Assembly: GCA_035634055.1 (NCBI GenBank)
Contig: DASQDR010000048.1
Span: 35,492-99,491 of the forward strand
DNA: 64,000 nt
DNA from: Tepidisphaeraceae bacterium
Lineage (GTDB): Bacteria > Planctomycetota > Phycisphaerae > Tepidisphaerales > Tepidisphaeraceae
Direction of reading: 5' to 3'
Under the pieces are notes generated by a model, which saw nothing but the letters and a program-made list of their open reading frames with translations, made no database searches and had not been told where the DNA came from. Shown here in pieces: positions 49,721-57,880 of the stretch (position 1 is the stretch's first letter; the number at the start of each line of letters is the position of its first letter). The position numbers and the translations under genes were made by a program.

Positions 49721-50329
49721 TCAATCCTTCTGCTTGGTCGCCCCCAGCTCCTTGGCGATCTCGCTTTCCAGCTCGTCGAGCTTGCTCAGCTCCTGCTTCT
49801 CGCTGGCCAGCACCTCGGCCTGGATCATGCGGTCGATCTCGTCGTCGCTGACGAGCTCCTCGCGGGCGGTGGCGGCGGTGCCGGAGCGGGCGGCGTCCTC
49901 CATCGAGTCCAGGAAGATCTCCATCCGCTCCTCCATCGACCCCGCCTGCGCGACCGCCTTTTCCCACTGCGTCTGCGTCTTGGTCAGGTCCATCTCGCCG
50001 AAGATGTCGCCGATCTGCCGCGCCATGACGTTCATCGATTCGGCGAACTGCTGGCTCGCCTGCGCCTGCTGCTGGATCAGCATCGCGTTGCGGATCGCCA
50101 GCAGTTGCCGCTCGAGCATCTTCTTCACCGCGGCGGTCTTCTTCAGGGCCGATCGGATGAACAGGTACTGCCCGTTGTCGCCGATCTGCTTGGCGTGGCG
50201 GGCGTTGCGGATGAAGTCCTCGGTGAACTTCTCCTGCTGGCGGATCGAGCGCTCGATCGAGCGCATGCCGGCCTTGATCTTCATCTCGCGCTCGATGCGG
50301 CGCTCGTCCTTGCTCTTGAACAGGCCCAT
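49721..50329 (-). CDS. ESCRT-III/Snf7-like coiled-coil protein (PspA/Vipp1 superfamily)
   Basis: MGLFKSKDERRIEREMKIKAGMRSIERS...HAKQIGDNGQYLFIRSALKK... The sequence looks predominantly alpha-helical with heptad-like spacing and an acidic C-terminal third (ELVSDDEIDRMIQAEV...LDELESEIAKEL). GAGGAA lies 7 nt upstream of the ATG at 50329. Confidence 0.65.
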   Translation of the reverse strand: MGLFKSKDERRIEREMKIKAGMRSIERSIRQQEKFTEDFIRNARHAKQIGDNGQYLFIRSALKKTAAVKKMLERQLLAIRNAMLIQQQAQASQQFAESMNVMARQIGDIFGEMDLTKTQTQWEKAVAQAGSMEERMEIFLDSMEDAARSGTAATAREELVSDDEIDRMIQAEVLASEKQELSKLDELESEIAKELGATKQKD

Positions 50330-50404
50330 GTGCGGTTCCTCGCTTGGACGTGTGTGTAACACGGCGCCCGCCGGGCGGGCGAGTGGAAAAGCCGGCTGTC
50401 GATT

Positions 50405-50848
50405 CTAAGGCCGCAGCGGCACGCGGAGCACCAGCCCGATGAGCAGCCCGCCGACGATCATCCAGAACGTCACCGCTTCGTCGCGCGACAGCCCCGCGCC
50501 GAAGGCGCCGAGCACGCAGGCGACGCCGATCGCGAAGATGATCTGGCTCCGCCCGCCGAGCCGGGCGACCGTGGCGGCCCCGGCAGCCCGCACGGACGCG
50601 GCGAACGGACCGGCGGCGGCGGCGAACTCGCTGGCGACGTAGCGAAGCCATGCGACGGCCTTCCAGAACGTCGGGAAGATTGGGTTCACGTCCGACTTGG
50701 CGTACTCGAGCCGAACGTGCGGGTCGCGCGGCGTGCCCGCCCTGCTCGCCGAGCCCGCCGCGCCGCCGGCGCCACCGCCCGCATCGCGAGCGGCTGGTCC
50801 CGCATCCGGTTCCCCCCGCCTCGGCGTTACCACCACGCGCTCGCCCAC
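50405..50848 (-). CDS. Two-TM membrane protein upstream of the ESCRT-III-like gene
   Basis: GGAGGTGAGC precedes the GTG at 50848. C-terminal helices are IIFAIGVACVLGAFGAG and VTFWMIVGGLLIGLVLRV. The N-terminal 45 aa have weaker codon bias, so the start is uncertain. Confidence 0.55.
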   Translation of the reverse strand: MGERVVVTPRRGEPDAGPAARDAGGGAGGAAGSASRAGTPRDPHVRLEYAKSDVNPIFPTFWKAVAWLRYVASEFAAAAGPFAASVRAAGAATVARLGGRSQIIFAIGVACVLGAFGAGLSRDEAVTFWMIVGGLLIGLVLRVPLRP

Positions 50849-50850
50849 GC

Positions 50851-50958
50851 TCACCTCCGCCCTTTGAACTTCTCGATCGCCCAGGCGATCGGCACCAGCG
50901 GCACGAGCAGCGCCCACATGACCCACTCGGCGGCGTTCTTGCGGTGCAGGTTGCTCAT
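50851..50958 (-). CDS. 35-aa single-TM micro-protein, first gene of the putative operon
   Basis: MSNLHRKNAAEWVMWALLVPLVPIAWAIEKFKGRR. Its stop lies 2 nt before the next start. GGAG lies upstream. Confidence 0.4.
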   Translation of the reverse strand: MSNLHRKNAAEWVMWALLVPLVPIAWAIEKFKGRR

Positions 50959-51061: not shown

Positions 51062-51112
51062 CGAAAAAGGGGCAGGAGCCGGCGCCCGTACAGCGCGCTC
51101 GGCTCCTGCCCC
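51062..51112 (-). terminator. Intrinsic terminator of the RTX-repeat gene
   Basis: 13-bp stem GGGGCAGGAGCCG (51069-51081) pairs with CGGCTCCTGCCCC (51100-51112). On the minus strand it is followed by TTTTTCGTTTG. Confidence 0.8.
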
Positions 51113-51135: not shown

Positions 51136-52356
51136 TCAGGCGGCCTGGGGCCACTCGACCTTCGCCCACTGCGATTCGCCCGTGCCGATGCTGTAGCGGA
51201 TGAGGGCGAACTTGCCCTCGTCGCCGTGGTCGGCCACCACCGCCTTCACCACCGCACCGGGGTGCTCGGACAGGAACGCCGCGACGGTGGCCGACGGCAG
51301 ATTGCCCGGGGCCACCTCGTAGCTGTCGAGCTCCACGGTCTCCGATTCCTCGAACGGGTGCGAGCCGGTGAAGGTGAAGCGGGCGTGGTAGACGGCGCCG
51401 TCGCCGTTGTAGCGGTAGAGCATCGTGAAGGTGTGGTCGTCGTTGACGCGCACGCCCACCGGCTCGGAATCCGGGAACGTGTCGACGAACGCCTGGCGGT
51501 AGGTCTCGGGGACGTAAGAGAGGTCGACGGGCACGTAGAGGCGGTCCTCGCCGGCGGTCTGGTCGGCGACGAGGTCGAGGACGGCACCGGGGGCGGTGGC
51601 ATCCTCGGAGGCGAAGTCGTCCTGCCCCGCGCCGCCGGAGAGCGCATCGCTGCCGGCGCCGCCGTCAAGCTGGTCGTCGCCGCGCCCGCCGCCGAGGGCG
51701 TCGTCGCCGGCGCCGCCGACGAGATGGTCGAAGCCGCCGTTGCCGTTGAGGGCGTCGTCGCCGGCGTTTCCGTCGGCGAAGTCGTCGCCCGCGCCGCCGG
51801 TGAGGACGTCGTCGCCGTTGCCGCCGTCGAGGGCGTCGTCGCCGTTGCCGCCGACGAGGGTGTCGTTGCCGTCGCCGCCGGCGATGAGGTCGCGAGCGCT
51901 GCCGCCGACGATGCGATCGTTGCCCGCGCCGCCGTCCACGCGATCGCGCCCGCCGCCGCCGAACAGCACGTCATCGGCGCTGCCGCCGATGATCAGGTCG
52001 TTGCCGCCGCCGCCCAGCACCGTCATCGGCACCGAGATGCCGCCGGCCGCGCCGGAGGCGACCACAACGTGATCGCGCCCGCTGCCGACGTCCACCTGGA
52101 TACCGGCGACGGCCGTGCGGTCGAAGGTGCTCCAGGCGCCGTTGACGTTGACGCGGAGCACGCTGGCGTCGCTGGCGTCGCCGGCGATCAGCACGTGGTC
52201 GCCGGCATCGGTGCCGGTGACGTAAAGCTGCGTGCCCGACAGCGCCGCTGAGAAGAGCCGGCGCGCGGCGAGCGGCTCGATGCGAGCGGCCGGGGCCGGG
52301 AAGTTGGACGACTTGGGCGACTTCGACAACGACGAGGAAGGACGGCGGCGGTTCAT
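51136..52356 (-). CDS. Secreted RTX/hemolysin-type calcium-binding repeat protein
   Basis: N-terminal [12 protein letters not shown] motif and at least 10 GGxGxD nonapeptides ([51 protein letters not shown]...). The ATG at 52356 has GGAG upstream. Confidence 0.88.
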
Positions 52357-52543
52357 TTCTCTGCTCCGTGGGTGAACATCGCGCGGGCCGCGCGAAACGA
52401 GCGGGCCCACGGTGGAGCTATCGGAACGCCGCGGGCGCGGGTTAACCGGGCGGTGCGGGATAACGCGAATAACGGGACGGGTTCGCCGGGCGCGACGCCG
52501 TAGCGGCGACGCTTGCGTCGTCCTTCGCCGACCCGAAATAGAA

Positions 52544-52563
52544 GGCGAGTCAGGCCTCGCCCC
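52544..52563. repeat. REP-like hairpin (copy 2 of GGCGAG..GCCTCGCCCC), possible terminator of the giant gene
   Basis: GGCGAGTCAGGCCTCGCCCC. On the minus strand it is followed by TTCTATTTCGGG. Confidence 0.55.
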
Positions 52564-52674
52564 CAACGGGTGATGATGGTCCTGGATCCGTATAACGCGT
52601 CGGCCGGGACGGCTGCGCGTGTCGCTGGGGCTGCCGCGTCATCGGGGTCGCCGGCAGGTGAAGAAAGCGGATCC

Positions 52675-55600
52675 TTATCGGGCCTGGCCTTCGGCGAACA
52701 ACCTGCGGCTGGCGGCGACGTAGTCGAGCATTTGCTCCGACGACAGCGATCGCCAGCGGAGGAACTGGCGGCGAAGCTCGGTGAGGAACGGGCGGTTCAT
52801 GCGGTACCACGACCCGTCGTCGCCGCTGAGCCGGCGGAGCGTCACGCGCACCTCGTAGATATCCGGGTGCTCGCCCGGGCGGATGACGAGAGTCAATTCC
52901 TGGCGGACGCCGAGGTCGAACGGCGTGAGCCACACGATGGTCCGCAGCCCGCGTCCGGCATTGCCGTTGGCGGCGGGCGCGGCGGCGCCGCCTCGGTCGC
53001 CATTGCCGCTGCTGTTCGGGCCGTGGGTCAGGCTGGCAGCGCCGGCGGGCGCGGCGCGATTGGCACCGTCGCCAACCGCGCTCATGCCCGGGCCAGGGGC
53101 CGTGTCCACCAGCACCACGTTGCCGCGGTTGGCATCGCCGTCGCCATTGCCCCGGGCATAGCCCGGCCCGGAGAAGGCTTCGATCCGGTCGGCGGAGAAC
53201 TTGCCGATCGAGCCCTCGCGGTGGGCGGCGAAGAACTCGGCGAGATAGGCGATGGCCCCGTCGGCGGCGGTGCGGTTGATGGTGAACGGGAGGTCCGCCT
53301 CGATCTGCCCATCGCGCGGGCCGGGCACGCGCCAGCTCCGCTCGATGCTCGGCGCGGCGACGCGGGCAGCCATCCGCGCGGGGACGATGCTGCTGGCCAG
53401 CACGATCAGCAGGATCAGGCCCATCGTCATCATCGCGCTGGTGCCGGAGTAGTTGAGCGTGACGCCCGAGCCGAGCAGCCCGAGCTTGAGCAGCAGCGTT
53501 CCCGCCCCCTGCCCGATCACGTAGCCGAACACCACGCCGATCAGCCCGTAAACCATCGCCTCGGCCACGAAGAGCGCGCCCACGTGGAGCGGCGCGAGCC
53601 CGAGCGAGGTGTAGACGTGGATCTCGCGACGCCGCTCGGCGATCGAGCCGAGCATGGTGTTGAAGATGATCAGCCCCGCGATCGCCAGCGGGATGGCGAC
53701 CTGCCCCGCGCCGCTGACCGACGACAGGTTGCCGGCCGAGACCATCCGCACGCCGTCGCTGTAGCCGGCGAAGAGTGCGACGGCGAACCGGCGGGCCAGC
53801 TCGTCGGCGAGCAGCTTCACGTCGGCATCCGCGCGCGCCCCCCCGGCGGCGCTGTCGGCGGCGCGGACGGCGACGCTGCGCAACGCCGCGTTGGGCAGCA
53901 GCCGCGACAGCGACGCCGGCACGATCGCGAAATCCTGCGCGGGCAAATACTCGTACGTCGCGCCCAGCTCGCGGCCGGCGGCGTTGGCGTTGAGGTCGAG
54001 CGACTCGGCCGACGCGTCGCTCATCTGGCGCCCGCCGGCGTCCAGCAGGTTCGCCTCGAACTTCAGCGGCGCGATTGGCTCGCCGCTGAGCGCGCGCACC
54101 TCGCGGTCGAACCGCGCGGCGTCGAACAGCCCGGCCACCTGCACGTCGATGCCACCGATGCGGACGACGTCCCCCTCCTTCAGCCCGGCGGGGGCGGCCA
54201 TGGCGGTGCTGAGGTAGACGATGTCGCGCTCGCCGCGCTCCAGCCGCGCGAACTGCTGCGCCCCGAGGACCGACGCGACCGGGGAAAGCTGCGACTCCCC
54301 CGGCGACAGCCCGAGCAGCGCCGCGGCCGCGACGACCCGCGGCTTCCCCCCGCCGCCGCCCCACCAGTGGCTTGAGGTTCTGCACGATCACCGGCGGCAG
54401 CGGGCGGTAGCCGCGCTGGCGGAGCATCACGCCGGCATAGCGGCTGGCCTCACCCGCCGGCAGGGTGATCGTGTCGAGGTAGCGCGTGGTGCTGGTGAAG
54501 CACAGGACCGCGAAGGTGATCAGCACGATGGTGGTCGACGTCAGCACCGTGCGGAACCGCCGGCGGCGCATGTTGGCGATGCCGAGCAGCACCGCGCTGG
54601 TCAGCACGCTGGCGCGGGCGAAGCTCATCGACGTCGCCGGCGCCTCGCCGCGGCCGCCGGCGCGCAGGCGCTTCAGCTCGGCGTCGAACTTGCCGTAGAT
54701 GACGTACGTGACGACCGCCGACATGAAGATGATCGCGAACGCCAACACGATGATCAGCGGCGAGGAGCTGATCCGGAACGCCGGGTGAAACGCCCACAGC
54801 GCCGCGGTCATCAGCGCGAAGATGCCGACGGCGGCGGCGATCTGGCGGTAGATGCTGCTGGCGGCGACCAGCAGCCGCTCCATGCAGAACGCGAAGGGCA
54901 CGCAGAGCAGCAGCAGGAAGATCGCCCCGCGCACCACGTCGTTGGCCAGGTCCTGCGTCGCCGAGTAGACGCGCGCGTCGCTCGCCCAGGCACCGGTGGC
55001 GTGCCCCATGACCACCGAGGCGTCGCGCCCGGCAACGACCGCGGCTGCGGCGAGCTGCGCCTGCGACGTCGCGCTGACCTGCAACGAGTCGATCAGCGTG
55101 CTGCTCACGCCCGCCCGCCGGTAGTCCGCCTGGCGCAGCGCGTCCAGCCGGTTGAAGTCCCACGCCGTCGCCAGCGCCAGCGGGTGGAGCGCGCGAAGCT
55201 CCGCGACGGTGTAGCCCGCTCCCAGCTCCAGCGATGCCCGCCCGGCGTCGCTCGGGCGCGAGGTCGCCATGGCGCGCCCGCCGCTCATGTTGGTCAGCAG
55301 CAGGCGGTTGCCGACCCGGCCGAAGCGGAAGATCAGCGACGTGCGCGCCCCGGGCTCGACAAAGCCGGCCATCACGCGGTCGGCGACGACGACGTTGAAC
55401 CGCTGCGGCTCGGCGTTGCGCCGTGCGTCCAGCGGGACGACCTCGCCGAGGTCCTGGAGGAATCGCGGGTCGTACAGCCCGACCAGCGGGAACTCCTCGC
55501 ACGTGAACACGACGCTGCGCAGCGGGGGCAGGTCCTGCTTGAGGTCCGCGTAGAGCTTGATGGCGCCGAGCTGTCGGCCGAGGTCCGTGCAGGCGGTGAT

Positions 55601-57880
55601 CTGCCCGCTGCCCGGCTCCGGCCGGAAGGCGGCGACGGCGACGATCTGCTGCTCGCCAAGGCGCGGCATCGCCTCGAACAAATACGCGCCGTCGGCGTCG
55701 GTGGCGCGGACCTCGCTCCGGCGGACGCCCATGGCGTAGGGCATCGCCCTGGGCTGCGGGATGCGCGGCAGGTTGCTCTCGGTGTGCGCGTAGGTGACGA
55801 GGAACCCGTCGCGCGGCAGGTCGGGCACCGGGCGGCCGGGGGCGGCGCTGACGACCTGCCCGCTGAATTGCGTCCGCTGCCACTTCAGCTCCGCCGGGCC
55901 GCGAAACGCGGGGTCGGACCAGGCGCGGAGCAACAGCTCGCGCACGGCCTGGAACTGGCGGAAGATCGCGTCGGCGTCGAGGCGCTCCGGCGTGTCGGTC
56001 GGCGTGTCGCGGCGCAGGCGCACGTCGTCCAGCGTCATCAGTGTGAACCCGGGCACGCCCCACGCCTGGCACAGCTCCGACCCGATCGCCACCGGCGCGG
56101 CCCGCCAGGTCTCGGCGCTGCGCGCGCCGGCGAAGGGGGCGAGGTCGACTCGCCCGGCGATCTCGCCCCACCACGCCGCCGCCGGATCGTTGTCCAGGAA
56201 CGCGCGCTCCTGGCGGGTGAACCAGTCGCGGTGGTCCTGGATCTGGCTGATGTTCGAGGTGTCCTGGAAGTTGCCGACGAACATCGGCCCGACCCGCACG
56301 CCCCGGTCGGAGAGGTCCAGGGCGACCAGCAGCTCGATCAATCGGCTGTCGTTGGCGCGGGCGGCGGGATTGACGTCGCGGCCGATCGCGCGGGCGAGCC
56401 ATTCGTAAAGGTCGACGCGGTCGCGCAGCACCCTCAGGCGGGCCTCGTGCTGCGACGCCAGCGCGCGGGCGCGCGAGAGGGTGCGGACGAGGTATTCCCG
56501 TGCCGGCGGGTCCATCTCGCCGGTCAGGTCGCCCGGGCGCTGCACGAACGCGTAGCGGAGCCGGCCGAGCAGGCCCTGGCGATCGTCCAAATGCTTCTCG
56601 CGCTGGAGCGCCTCCGCGTTGGACGCCAGGCCGAGGTCGCGGCGGACGCGGAAGAGGATGTCCTGCTCCAGCGCCGCATCGGTCTCGATCACGCTGGCGA
56701 TGCGGTCGACGGCCGCGCGGTCCCGCGCGGGATCGAGCTGCGCCGGGGTTTGCGCGACGGCCGCCAGGCGATCGACGATGGCGCGGGTGCTGGTGAGCTT
56801 ACGCTCGACCTCCCCGATCTCCGGCCGCCAGTGGGCGGGGACGTCGCCGAGGGCCATGAACAGGTTCCGCGTCGCCAGCATCTGCACGCCGTCGCCGCCG
56901 CCGAAGAAGAACAGCACAGGGCGCGACGGCGGGTTGGCGGCAAGGTGGCGGAGCAGCGCCAGGCCGCTCGCGGTCTGCGCCGCCTGGCTGGCGCCGGGGG
57001 AGAGGTCGGGGACGAGGGAGGTCGAGTCGTAGGGGACGCTGATGACCAACGCGCCCGCGGCGCCGCCCCGCACGCCCGCGCTCCCGCCCCCGCTGCCGCC
57101 CCGGCTGCCCGGGGATCGATTTGCCGCGACCGGCGTCCCCGCGGGACGGACCAGCGCGTAGAAGTTGGTCGCGCTGCGGGGTTGCCAATCGACGGCGGCC
57201 CGGAGCGTCACCGGGTGCTGGATCGCGCCGGAGCGGAGGTCGTCGGCGAGCTTGCCGGGCGGGACGTAGAACCGCGGCAGGTCGGCCGGGGCAACCAATT
57301 CGTGGTGGCGCAGGTCGGCGTTGTTGGTCTGGTCGTTCCCCAGGATCAGCACCGCGCGGGCGCCGAAGGAAAAGGCGTGGGTCCACGCCGCCCCCGCCGC
57401 CGCCTCGACTACTGCGATCTGCCCCGCCAGGTCGCGCGGGGTGATCTGCTCGAAGCCGGCGTGGCGGACGTAGACGCAGCGGCCGGTGATGCCGTCGGCG
57501 GGCGTGGCGTTGACGCGGACGCCGGCGGGCCAGAAGGGGTAGATCTTCTCTCCCGCCCCGCCGCCCCCCCCGCCCCCGCCGACCCGCACCAGCTCCGCCC
57601 AGCGGGTGATGGGCACCATCACCTCGAACTCGTGGCGGCGGAAGTCGACGTTGGGCAGCTCGCGAAGCTGCCGCTCGATCCACTGCCCGGCCGCCTGGTA
57701 GCCATCGGAGCCGACGACGCGCGACGGGTGGGCGCAGAGTTGACGCAGGTCGGCGCGGAATCTGTCGCGGTCGCCGCCCGGTGCGTCGGCGGCGCCGGCG
57801 GCGCGGGTGAGCAGCGCGCAGGCGGTGGCCAACGCGAGGAAAATGGCCCGAAAATGACGCCGTCGGCACGGGGTAATCAC
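52675..57880 (-). CDS. Giant membrane protein: signal peptide, PA/M28-peptidase-like domain, two MacB/FtsX-type permease modules, about 230-aa C-terminal domain; reading frame broken once at a G-run
   Basis: Frame 1 (57880 down to about 54365) ends meaningfully at ...VIVQNLKPLVG. Frame 2 continues GGGGGKPRVVAAAALLGLSPGESQL...; it contains the FtsX motifs (IAERRREIHVYTSLGLAPLHVGALFVAEAMVYGLIG) and runs to the stop at 52675. Confidence 0.75.

Follow-up and report, generated by a model that had tools for sequence, protein, structure and literature searches.

Do the Planctomycetota possess an ESCRT-III protein of the Snf7 type, and could the small membrane proteins encoded next to it bring it to the membrane? 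This question is raised by a group of three genes on a stretch of 64,000 nucleotides (nt; from here on, the window) from a metagenome-assembled genome (MAG) of a Tepidisphaeraceae bacterium (Planctomycetota), a soil planctomycete with a genomic GC content of 70%. In the review literature, bacterial ESCRT-III is equated with PspA/Vipp1, and Vps4-like ATPases as well as systems combining ESCRT-III with Vps4 are held to be absent from bacteria (PMC7619361, PMC10936438). Our analysis indicates that the product of one of the three genes, a protein of 202 amino acids (aa) that we call E3-B, very probably belongs, as a bacterial protein, to the ESCRT-III superfamily, on its Snf7/CHMP side. The explanation of the locus as a whole that we favor, albeit with some reservation, is that an ESCRT-III polymer of the Snf7 type is brought in by small membrane proteins. 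The genes and the spacer between two of them lie as follows, where TM stands for transmembrane, ORF for open reading frame and SD for Shine-Dalgarno.

49721-50329, minus strand: 202-aa ORF, E3-B, ATG start, taken from the translation.
50330-50404, minus strand: 75-nt spacer separating E3-B from the two-TM gene; an SD-like GAGGA lies 8-12 nt ahead of the E3-B ATG.
50405-50848, minus strand: 147-aa two-TM ORF, GTG start, gene-finder call.
50851-50958, minus strand: 35-aa single-TM ORF, ATG start, gene-finder call.

The assignment of E3-B is carried foremost by profile searches. An alignment of 52 diverse full-length family members (A1, 22-82% identity) was compared with a set of 177,635 PDB sequences, and matches up to E=10 were considered. 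The profile matched ESCRT-III proteins alone, namely CHMP2A (2.3e-6), CHMP3 (1.8e-5), Snf7 (4e-4), CHMP1B (8e-3) and the archaeal CdvB (0.018), the matches being collinear over approximately 140 residues and the top 12 all being ESCRT-III proteins; the window E3-B sequence by itself was sufficient to match CHMP3 at an E of 5e-3. Among the 52 family members, 33 matched the Pfam family Snf7 (PF03357, gathering threshold 27.3 bits), with a best E of 1.1e-7. In contrast, no PspA/Vipp1 chain was found with the A1 profile in the PDB set up to E=10, PspA_IM30 (PF04012) was not among the top 25 Pfam families over the 52 members, and neither the window E3-B nor ten further members scanned singly gave a PspA_IM30 match up to E=10. 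The protein also contains no 'EDP' string, so that the absence of the PspA EDP motif reported in the initial annotation holds. Two sets of coiled-coil controls from the same operons yielded no Snf7 matches (0/27 and 0/24) and no ESCRT-III matches in the PDB. Hence, the Snf7 signal of E3-B is specific rather than generic coiled-coil noise.

The predicted structure points in the same direction. In an AlphaFold2 (AF2) model of E3-B (predicted local distance difference test, pLDDT, 83.3), helices span residues 7-48, 52-110, 116-153 and 162-201, which form a long hairpin and two further helices; as modeled, this is the ESCRT-III arrangement of an alpha1-alpha2/3 hairpin followed by alpha4 and alpha5. 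When the model was used in a Foldseek search, the top eight matches were all ESCRT-III (CHMP2A/CHMP3, Loki CHMP4-7, Asgard ESCRT-IIIB, CHMP1B and Snf7/Shrub), with Vipp1 ranking only ninth (E 0.12) and PspA 35th (E 1.4). The two halves of the protein carry opposite charges: residues 1-110 have a net charge of +10 and an isoelectric point (pI) of 10.6, residues 111-202 a net charge of -13 and a pI of 4.3, and the family medians are likewise +10 and -13. The N-terminus reads MGLFKSK, to be compared with MGLFGK in CHMP3, and the conserved MGLFK motif hints at membrane insertion, while the acidic C-terminal half ends in ...KLDELESEIAKELGATKQKD. The initial annotation had likened the protein, by eye, to ESCRT-III/Snf7 more than to PspA, with a basic helical hairpin and an acidic C-terminal part. 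The PDB profile matches, the Pfam matches, the predicted hairpin fold with its Foldseek ranking and the charges of the two halves all bear this view out.

Protein searches returned 2,555 homologues of E3-B, none of which carries a Pfam domain, and 310 clusters at 50% identity. The family resides mostly in the Planctomycetota (Tepidisphaerales and Phycisphaerae) and has no annotation; E3-B has been left unannotated because it lies below Pfam's own Snf7 threshold, and the product of the window gene is identical to a 'hypothetical protein VER17_04350'. E3-B is single-copy, has a median identity of 78% across 80 species-level genomes and is present in 358 species genomes. The cultured and fully sequenced Fontivita pretiosa B-254 also carries the system.

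What, then, are the two small genes upstream of E3-B? The three ORFs, their coordinates, their placement on the minus strand and the gaps of 2 nt (35-aa/147-aa) and 75 nt (147-aa/202-aa) are as initially annotated, and every peptide stretch quoted there is present. For three publicly available contigs of this species, independent gene callers gave exactly the same three genes, and there is an SD-like GGAGG ahead of the 147-aa start as well as the GAGGA ahead of the 202-aa start. As judged from their sequences, none of the three is a spurious frame of the kind that DNA with 70% GC yields by chance, because the 202-aa, 35-aa and 147-aa products each have homologues or conserved relatives. For E3-B, the start at 50329 is favored over an upstream GTG at 50362, since the family consistently begins with MGLFK.

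The 35-aa micro-protein, MSNLHRKNAAEWVMWALLVPLVPIAWAIEKFKGRR, combines a conserved juxtamembrane HR(K/N)NAAEW motif with a Pro-containing TM helix, and its tail is basic. It has 22 intact homologues of approximately 34-57 aa, which share these features, the motif being an invariant HR(K/N)NAAEW(V/I)M, and always lie just upstream of E3-B. The N-terminus of the 147-aa protein is rich in Gly, Ala and Pro; the protein further has a 'RLEYAK' motif of the PLxY type and an amphipathic segment, and close to its C-terminus lie two Gly-rich TM helices. With phmmer it groups with 11 further two-TM proteins from the upstream position, 12 in total, that have a PL(D/G/E)Y motif and the TM pair in common. 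Two of these, in loci L055 and L015, start with MGERV..., as does the window protein at its GTG start, and L055 also has the gene order of the window, namely peptide, two-TM protein and E3-B. Both small ORFs are therefore genuine genes that are functionally tied to E3-B, as they are conserved and linked to it. Neither of the two window proteins matched a Pfam or NCBIfam family, including PspC and PspB. In locus L005 (1643-3055), the HRKNAAEW reading frame runs without a stop into a 470-aa ORF with a second hydrophobic, signal-peptide-like segment; this may be a genuine fusion or else an artefact of assembly or read-through.

The three-gene order itself is facultative and lineage-specific. Of 82 loci, no more than 34 carry a same-strand TM ORF immediately upstream of E3-B, and in many the space at this position is below 170 nt. 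Thus, the three-gene arrangement proposed initially is conserved insofar as the small ORFs are real and L055 shares the order, but it does not extend to most of the related loci. In some divergent Phycisphaerae (L078, L080, L081 and L082) and in L094, the same upstream slot is occupied by a PspC-domain protein; in two loci the Pfam scores for PspC are 88-89 bits (cutoff 25), and the L094 protein has a precomputed PspC match. Small membrane partners beside an effector are typical of PspBC-PspA and LiaI-LiaH, and the analogy to these anchor/effector pairs that was drawn at the outset gains support from the conservation and linkage of the small ORFs and from PspC in the equivalent position in relatives.

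The initial annotation had also suggested looking for a Vps4-like AAA ATPase, and among the relatives such a gene is found next to E3-B. A single-domain classical AAA is encoded directly downstream of E3-B in L076, L081, L084, L085, L087 and L088, and nearby in L094. L076, L081, L084 and L094 are divergent Planctomycetota, while L085, L087 and L088 carry distant homologues in other bacteria (L087 is bacterial by its uS9 and has a GC content of 39%). The N-terminal approximately 70 residues of the AAA protein resemble MIT domains weakly in profile comparisons (2mpk, 1e-5; the MIT domain of Sulfolobus Vps4, 2v6y, 0.07-0.15; that of VPS4B, 2cpt, 0.24). The AAA domain itself scores 1e-33 to 1e-41 and is accompanied by AAA_lid_3. 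Vps4_C reaches 21.5 bits against a cutoff of 21.3 in L084 and is sub-threshold in the other loci, and a precomputed Vps4_C (PF09336) match exists for about half of the close AAA homologues. An identification as a Vps4 orthologue was considered and downgraded, the core being closer to Cdc48 D2, and we regard the protein, on sequence grounds, as Vps4-like by architecture and linkage but not as an orthologue. On one Planctomycetes contig (L093:7001-10829), an MIT-like AAA has a methyltransferase and a Band_7 protein of 593 aa as neighbours instead of E3-B; its linkage to E3-B is thus frequent, though not universal. A protein search with the AAA returned only close homologues from Phycisphaerae/Planctomycetes, with no Tepidisphaeraceae or VER17 names among them.

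The C-terminal tails of E3-B proteins may be related to the presence of this ATPase. E3-B relatives that are linked to an AAA gene often end in MIM1-like LxxxLxxL[KR] cores, e.g., ISERLEKLK or LRAELDSLK, while the Tepidisphaerales tail is an invariant ...KLDELESEIAKELGxxKQKD with a deletion of three residues relative to the family consensus. A regular-expression test for co-variation of a MIM1-like C-terminal motif with AAA linkage gave zero matches. The correlation between tail type and AAA linkage is qualitative only and is no more than suggestive, since L076 is an exception.

Distant E3-B homologues also occur in other settings. In L088, a fusion protein of 800 aa (P0269; 8001-10403) joins an E3-B-like N-terminus to a RuvB-like AAA+ with winged-helix domain and to a NERD domain. 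The genes after it (10396-15154) encode a protease of the trypsin type, Band_7_1, a coiled-coil protein of 344 aa, then another E3-B homologue, whose end is the canonical MIM1 core ISERLEKLK, and finally the MIT-like AAA. In L087 (2637-12938), an integrase, a Band_7_1 protein with zinc ribbon, a 126-aa protein and a 207-aa coiled-coil protein precede the E3-B homologue, and after it come an AAA of 497 aa (with DUF7862), then BrxL and a TPR/TIR protein of 1169 aa, such that this region looks like a mobile or defence island. Two further proteins of approximately 420 aa, P0225 and P0244, have an N-terminal domain of approximately 220 aa and of unknown function fused to the E3-B module.

In most related loci, E3-B is the end of a larger gene set. 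A conserved 204-aa helical-hairpin protein is encoded immediately before it in 63 of approximately 85 related loci, and where this partner is adjacent, the HRKNAAEW peptide lies between the two. Clustering of the ORFs revealed a co-directional module, in which E3-B normally is the terminal gene, with the following order.

Gene 1: four-TM protein of approximately 130 aa.
Gene 2: Ser/Thr kinase with C-terminal zinc ribbons.
Gene 3: two-TM protein of approximately 100 aa with a zinc ribbon.
Gene 4: TM protein of approximately 320 aa with a zinc ribbon.
Gene 5: protein of approximately 497 aa.
Gene 6: 204-aa partner, then optional small TM genes, then E3-B.

In L004 (3954-8490) and the equivalent stretches of 31-57 loci, the kinase as well as two membrane proteins terminate in zinc-ribbon motifs, and the same stretch holds the approximately 497-aa protein, which is without a Pfam match. 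The junctions of the module appear to tolerate insertions of unrelated small genes: a HicB-like antitoxin lies between the approximately 497-aa protein and the 204-aa partner in L004 (8708-8926), and DUF3800 and nucleotidyltransferase genes lie between E3-B and the AAA in L094 (4960-6426).

Besides E3-B, the window contains none of the listed components of the larger module. They are nevertheless present in part in the same MAG, since on the same contig of 113,681 bp the 204-aa partner (VER17_04005) is found, preceded by the approximately 497-aa protein, approximately 69 genes away from E3-B (VER17_04350). The window thus holds the detached end of the module. We had suspected by eye that the 204-aa partner and the C-terminal approximately 170 aa of the approximately 497-aa protein are additional ESCRT-III subunits, but this is not claimed here. 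PDB profile searches with the two proteins, which are the coiled-coil controls mentioned above, returned nothing relevant, the probabilities in hhalign comparisons with the E3-B profile were 0.3% and 1.8%, and none of the 27 and 24 individual members matched Pfam Snf7. Likewise, an AF2 model of the 204-aa partner (pLDDT 72) had no Foldseek match better than an E of approximately 1.

How might these components work together? The mechanism that we propose is drawn by analogy with ESCRT-III, PspA-PspBC and LiaH-LiaI. Soluble E3-B would be autoinhibited, its acidic C-terminal half being folded back on the basic hairpin. The part of receptors or sensors in the inner membrane would fall to the HRKNAAEW micro-protein and the PLxY two-TM protein, both presumably co-transcribed with E3-B; they would recruit or nucleate it at the cytoplasmic face, where the N-terminal MGLF and the basic hairpin may bind lipid. 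E3-B would then polymerize and in this way stabilize, repair or remodel the membrane. In sister Phycisphaerae, PspC fills the slot of the small membrane proteins, and the MIT-like AAA that follows E3-B may recycle the polymer via the C-terminal MIM-like helix, with the kinase and the zinc-ribbon proteins probably regulating the process. In the present genome, E3-B has been parted by a rearrangement, together with both membrane partners, from the other module genes. The physiological role of such a system could be envelope-stress protection, membrane remodeling or, most speculatively, FtsZ-independent division.

A number of observations weigh against this reading. Regarding the homology, the window E3-B reaches only 10.3 bits (E 0.55, profile positions 4-163 of 171) against Pfam Snf7, which is under the cutoff, and ten other members scanned singly gave 11-19 bits or no match, all under the gathering score. 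The hmmsearch bias is high (22.7 on a 30.3-bit match), as is expected for coiled coils, and the best Foldseek E is only 1.4e-3. On sequence evidence, Snf7 homology is therefore supported at the level of the family, while the window protein itself lies outside strict Pfam Snf7 membership, and the comparison with PF03357 and PF04012 that had been suggested came out accordingly: the family touches Snf7, PspA_IM30 went unmatched in the scans given above, and the protein that gave rise to the comparison misses the Snf7 cutoff. As to the partners, the small membrane ORFs are missing from more than half of the related loci and for this reason cannot be obligatory receptors, and the 204-aa partner and the approximately 497-aa protein have no detectable ESCRT-III similarity. 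With respect to ATPase coupling, there is no classical AAA gene in the window and none within 10 kb in any Tepidisphaerales locus. Moreover, the Tepidisphaerales tail is unlike the MIM1-like tails of the AAA-linked relatives, and the AAA core of those relatives is closer to Cdc48 D2 than to Vps4, the lid and C-terminus matching Cdc48 D2 at 1.5e-10 versus VPS4B at 9e-6.

Some of these points would be accommodated if E3-B were an envelope-stress effector of the Psp/Lia type, i.e., the Planctomycetota equivalent of PspA/LiaH, which would form a protective carpet without an ATPase-driven cycle. PspC, the HRKNAAEW peptide and the two-TM protein would then be sensors that recruit E3-B to damaged membrane. 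This differs from the explanation that we favor mainly in the physiological role and in needing no AAA, and it fits with the absence of an AAA from the surroundings of E3-B in the window and in the Tepidisphaerales loci, with PspC directly upstream of E3-B in the five loci named above and with the placement of an effector beside small membrane partners. PspA systems also function without Vps4 (PMC7619361). However, similarity to PspA/Vipp1 went undetected while the Snf7-type similarity was consistent, the MIT-like AAA and the MIM1-like tails in relatives suggest that a cycle driven by ATP exists or at least did so in an ancestor, and the kinase/zinc-ribbon module is unlike known psp or lia operons. 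We thus consider an effector of this kind possible, though rather unlikely.

The Planctomycetes all lack FtsZ, and in the Phycisphaerae, whose division resembles binary fission, the driver of division is unknown (PMC6952346), which begs the question whether E3-B, its partners and the MIT-like AAA are a Cdv-like division or scission machine that acts through constricting polymers at the division site. The single copy and very strong conservation of E3-B, the occurrence of an operon of a Snf7-like protein and an MIT-like AAA in Phycisphaerae and the module kinase, which could provide cell-cycle control, would all suit such a machine. Yet these arguments are purely circumstantial, the AAA is unlinked in Tepidisphaerales, and the distant homologues in mobile, defence-like islands of low-GC bacteria are ill-suited to a core role in division, so that we deem this function improbable. 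In its boldest version, the kinase, the approximately 497-aa protein, the 204-aa partner, PspC or the micro-protein, E3-B and the MIT-like AAA would together be a bacterial ESCRT-like machine, ancient or derived from archaea, that constitutes the missing FtsZ-independent division or scission apparatus of Phycisphaerae and Tepidisphaerales and the counterpart of Cdv; this, too, has little probability in our view. The same islands could instead suggest a stress or anti-phage defence module, which would cause abortive infection or protect the membrane as a mobile cassette of Band_7/SPFH proteins, coiled-coil proteins and AAA. The L087 homologue indeed has an integrase with Band_7_1 on its one flank and an AAA, BrxL and a protein with TIR and TPR on its other flank, L088 has the NERD/RuvB-AAA fusion with a trypsin-like protease nearby, and L004 has the HicB-like insertion. 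Against this, a PADLOC v2 search gave no match for E3-B, the 204-aa partner, the approximately 497-aa protein or the Band_7_1 neighbours, and the AAA had only generic similarity to IetA/TRIP13; relatives were not found on viral contigs; and vertical conservation, synteny and near-universality in the clade set the Planctomycetota locus apart from patchy defence islands, with window neighbours (MgtE, RecQ and a GNAT) of the housekeeping type. A known defence system was rejected on the PADLOC result and a phage origin for the want of viral relatives, and of all the explanations considered here a defence role seems to us the most remote.

Returning to the recruitment of a Snf7-type polymer by small membrane proteins, it is instructive to see where such a system would stand among those already described. 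E3-B is like ESCRT-III (PF03357) in its size of approximately 200 aa, its hydrophobic and basic N-terminus, its basic hairpin with alpha4, alpha5 and acidic C-terminal half, its collinear, full-length profile matches, its best predicted-structure matches and, in relatives, the operon linkage to an MIT-like single-domain AAA and the MIM1-like tails. It differs from ESCRT-III in being bacterial, in the Pfam gathering score that the window protein and the ten members scanned singly fail to reach, in the Tepidisphaerales copies without an AAA nearby and the Cdc48 D2-like AAA core of the relatives, and in its neighbours, among which PspC or small TM proteins of a novel kind, a Ser/Thr kinase and membrane proteins with zinc ribbons take the place of ESCRT-I/II or CdvA. 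With PspA/Vipp1/LiaH (PF04012) it shares the superfamily fold and the predicted position of a cytoplasmic coiled-coil effector beside genes for small inner-membrane proteins, and in relatives a bona fide PspC-domain protein immediately upstream. Unlike these proteins, it shows no PspA_IM30 similarity at any threshold tried and no EDP motif, there are no PspF, PspB or LiaF/Toastrack partners, and the membrane partners in the window belong to no described family.

Snf7-type proteins in bacteria have been reported before. Ravi et al. 2024 (mSystems, PMC11237479) describe sporadic bacterial Snf7-clade proteins, some of them with AAA+, and suggest ATP-dependent membrane remodeling; the examples given in the main text are RND fusions in Actinobacteria, proteins in Deltaproteobacteria and Bacteroidetes, and TM-containing Snf7 proteins in operons with ABC and OmpA genes. 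Planctomycetes, Verrucomicrobia, the Planctomycetes-Verrucomicrobia-Chlamydiae (PVC) group and a kinase/PspC/micro-protein module are not mentioned in that main text, and the present family is set apart from theirs by description only. Our literature search found no paper that ties ESCRT-III/Snf7 or Vps4 to Planctomycetes or Phycisphaerae. What appears to be new here, judging from the sequences, is thus a Snf7-type ESCRT-III in a bacterial context of Psp-like membrane partners, whereas the kind of protein itself was already known.

The surroundings of the three genes in the window are unrelated to them. Downstream lies a convergent MgtE gene, and immediately upstream a gene for a protein with RTX calcium-binding repeats (51136-52566, minus strand), beyond which very long overlapping ORFs extend over 52550-57880 (minus strand), including an FtsX-like permease (52675-54201). 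One further element was noted between the RTX gene and the three-gene unit.

51070-51087, minus strand: terminator-like hairpin with T-run, just after the upstream RTX-repeat gene; 1 site versus 1.0 expected by chance.

The 5′ limit of the three-gene transcription unit is probably set by this hairpin, the evidence being weak, as a lone terminator-like site is at chance level. A sigma-70 scan found no promoter, and an alignment of the regions upstream of E3-B from 80 loci revealed no conserved leader or promoter block.

The E3-B family thus is well conserved, unannotated and, most probably, on the Snf7 side of its superfamily, and in sister lineages it is linked to both PspC and an MIT-like AAA, such that it has the appearance of a hybrid between Psp and ESCRT systems. 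This would blur the supposed split of the superfamily into a bacterial and an archaeal part and bears on the question whether proteins of the Snf7 type are older than the archaea. New putative partners that can be tested as receptors for ESCRT-III are given by the HRKNAAEW micro-protein and the two-TM protein. For this phylum, in which FtsZ is lacking and whose complex endomembranes are a known feature, E3-B and its partners may provide a concrete candidate for membrane remodeling, and perhaps even for division.

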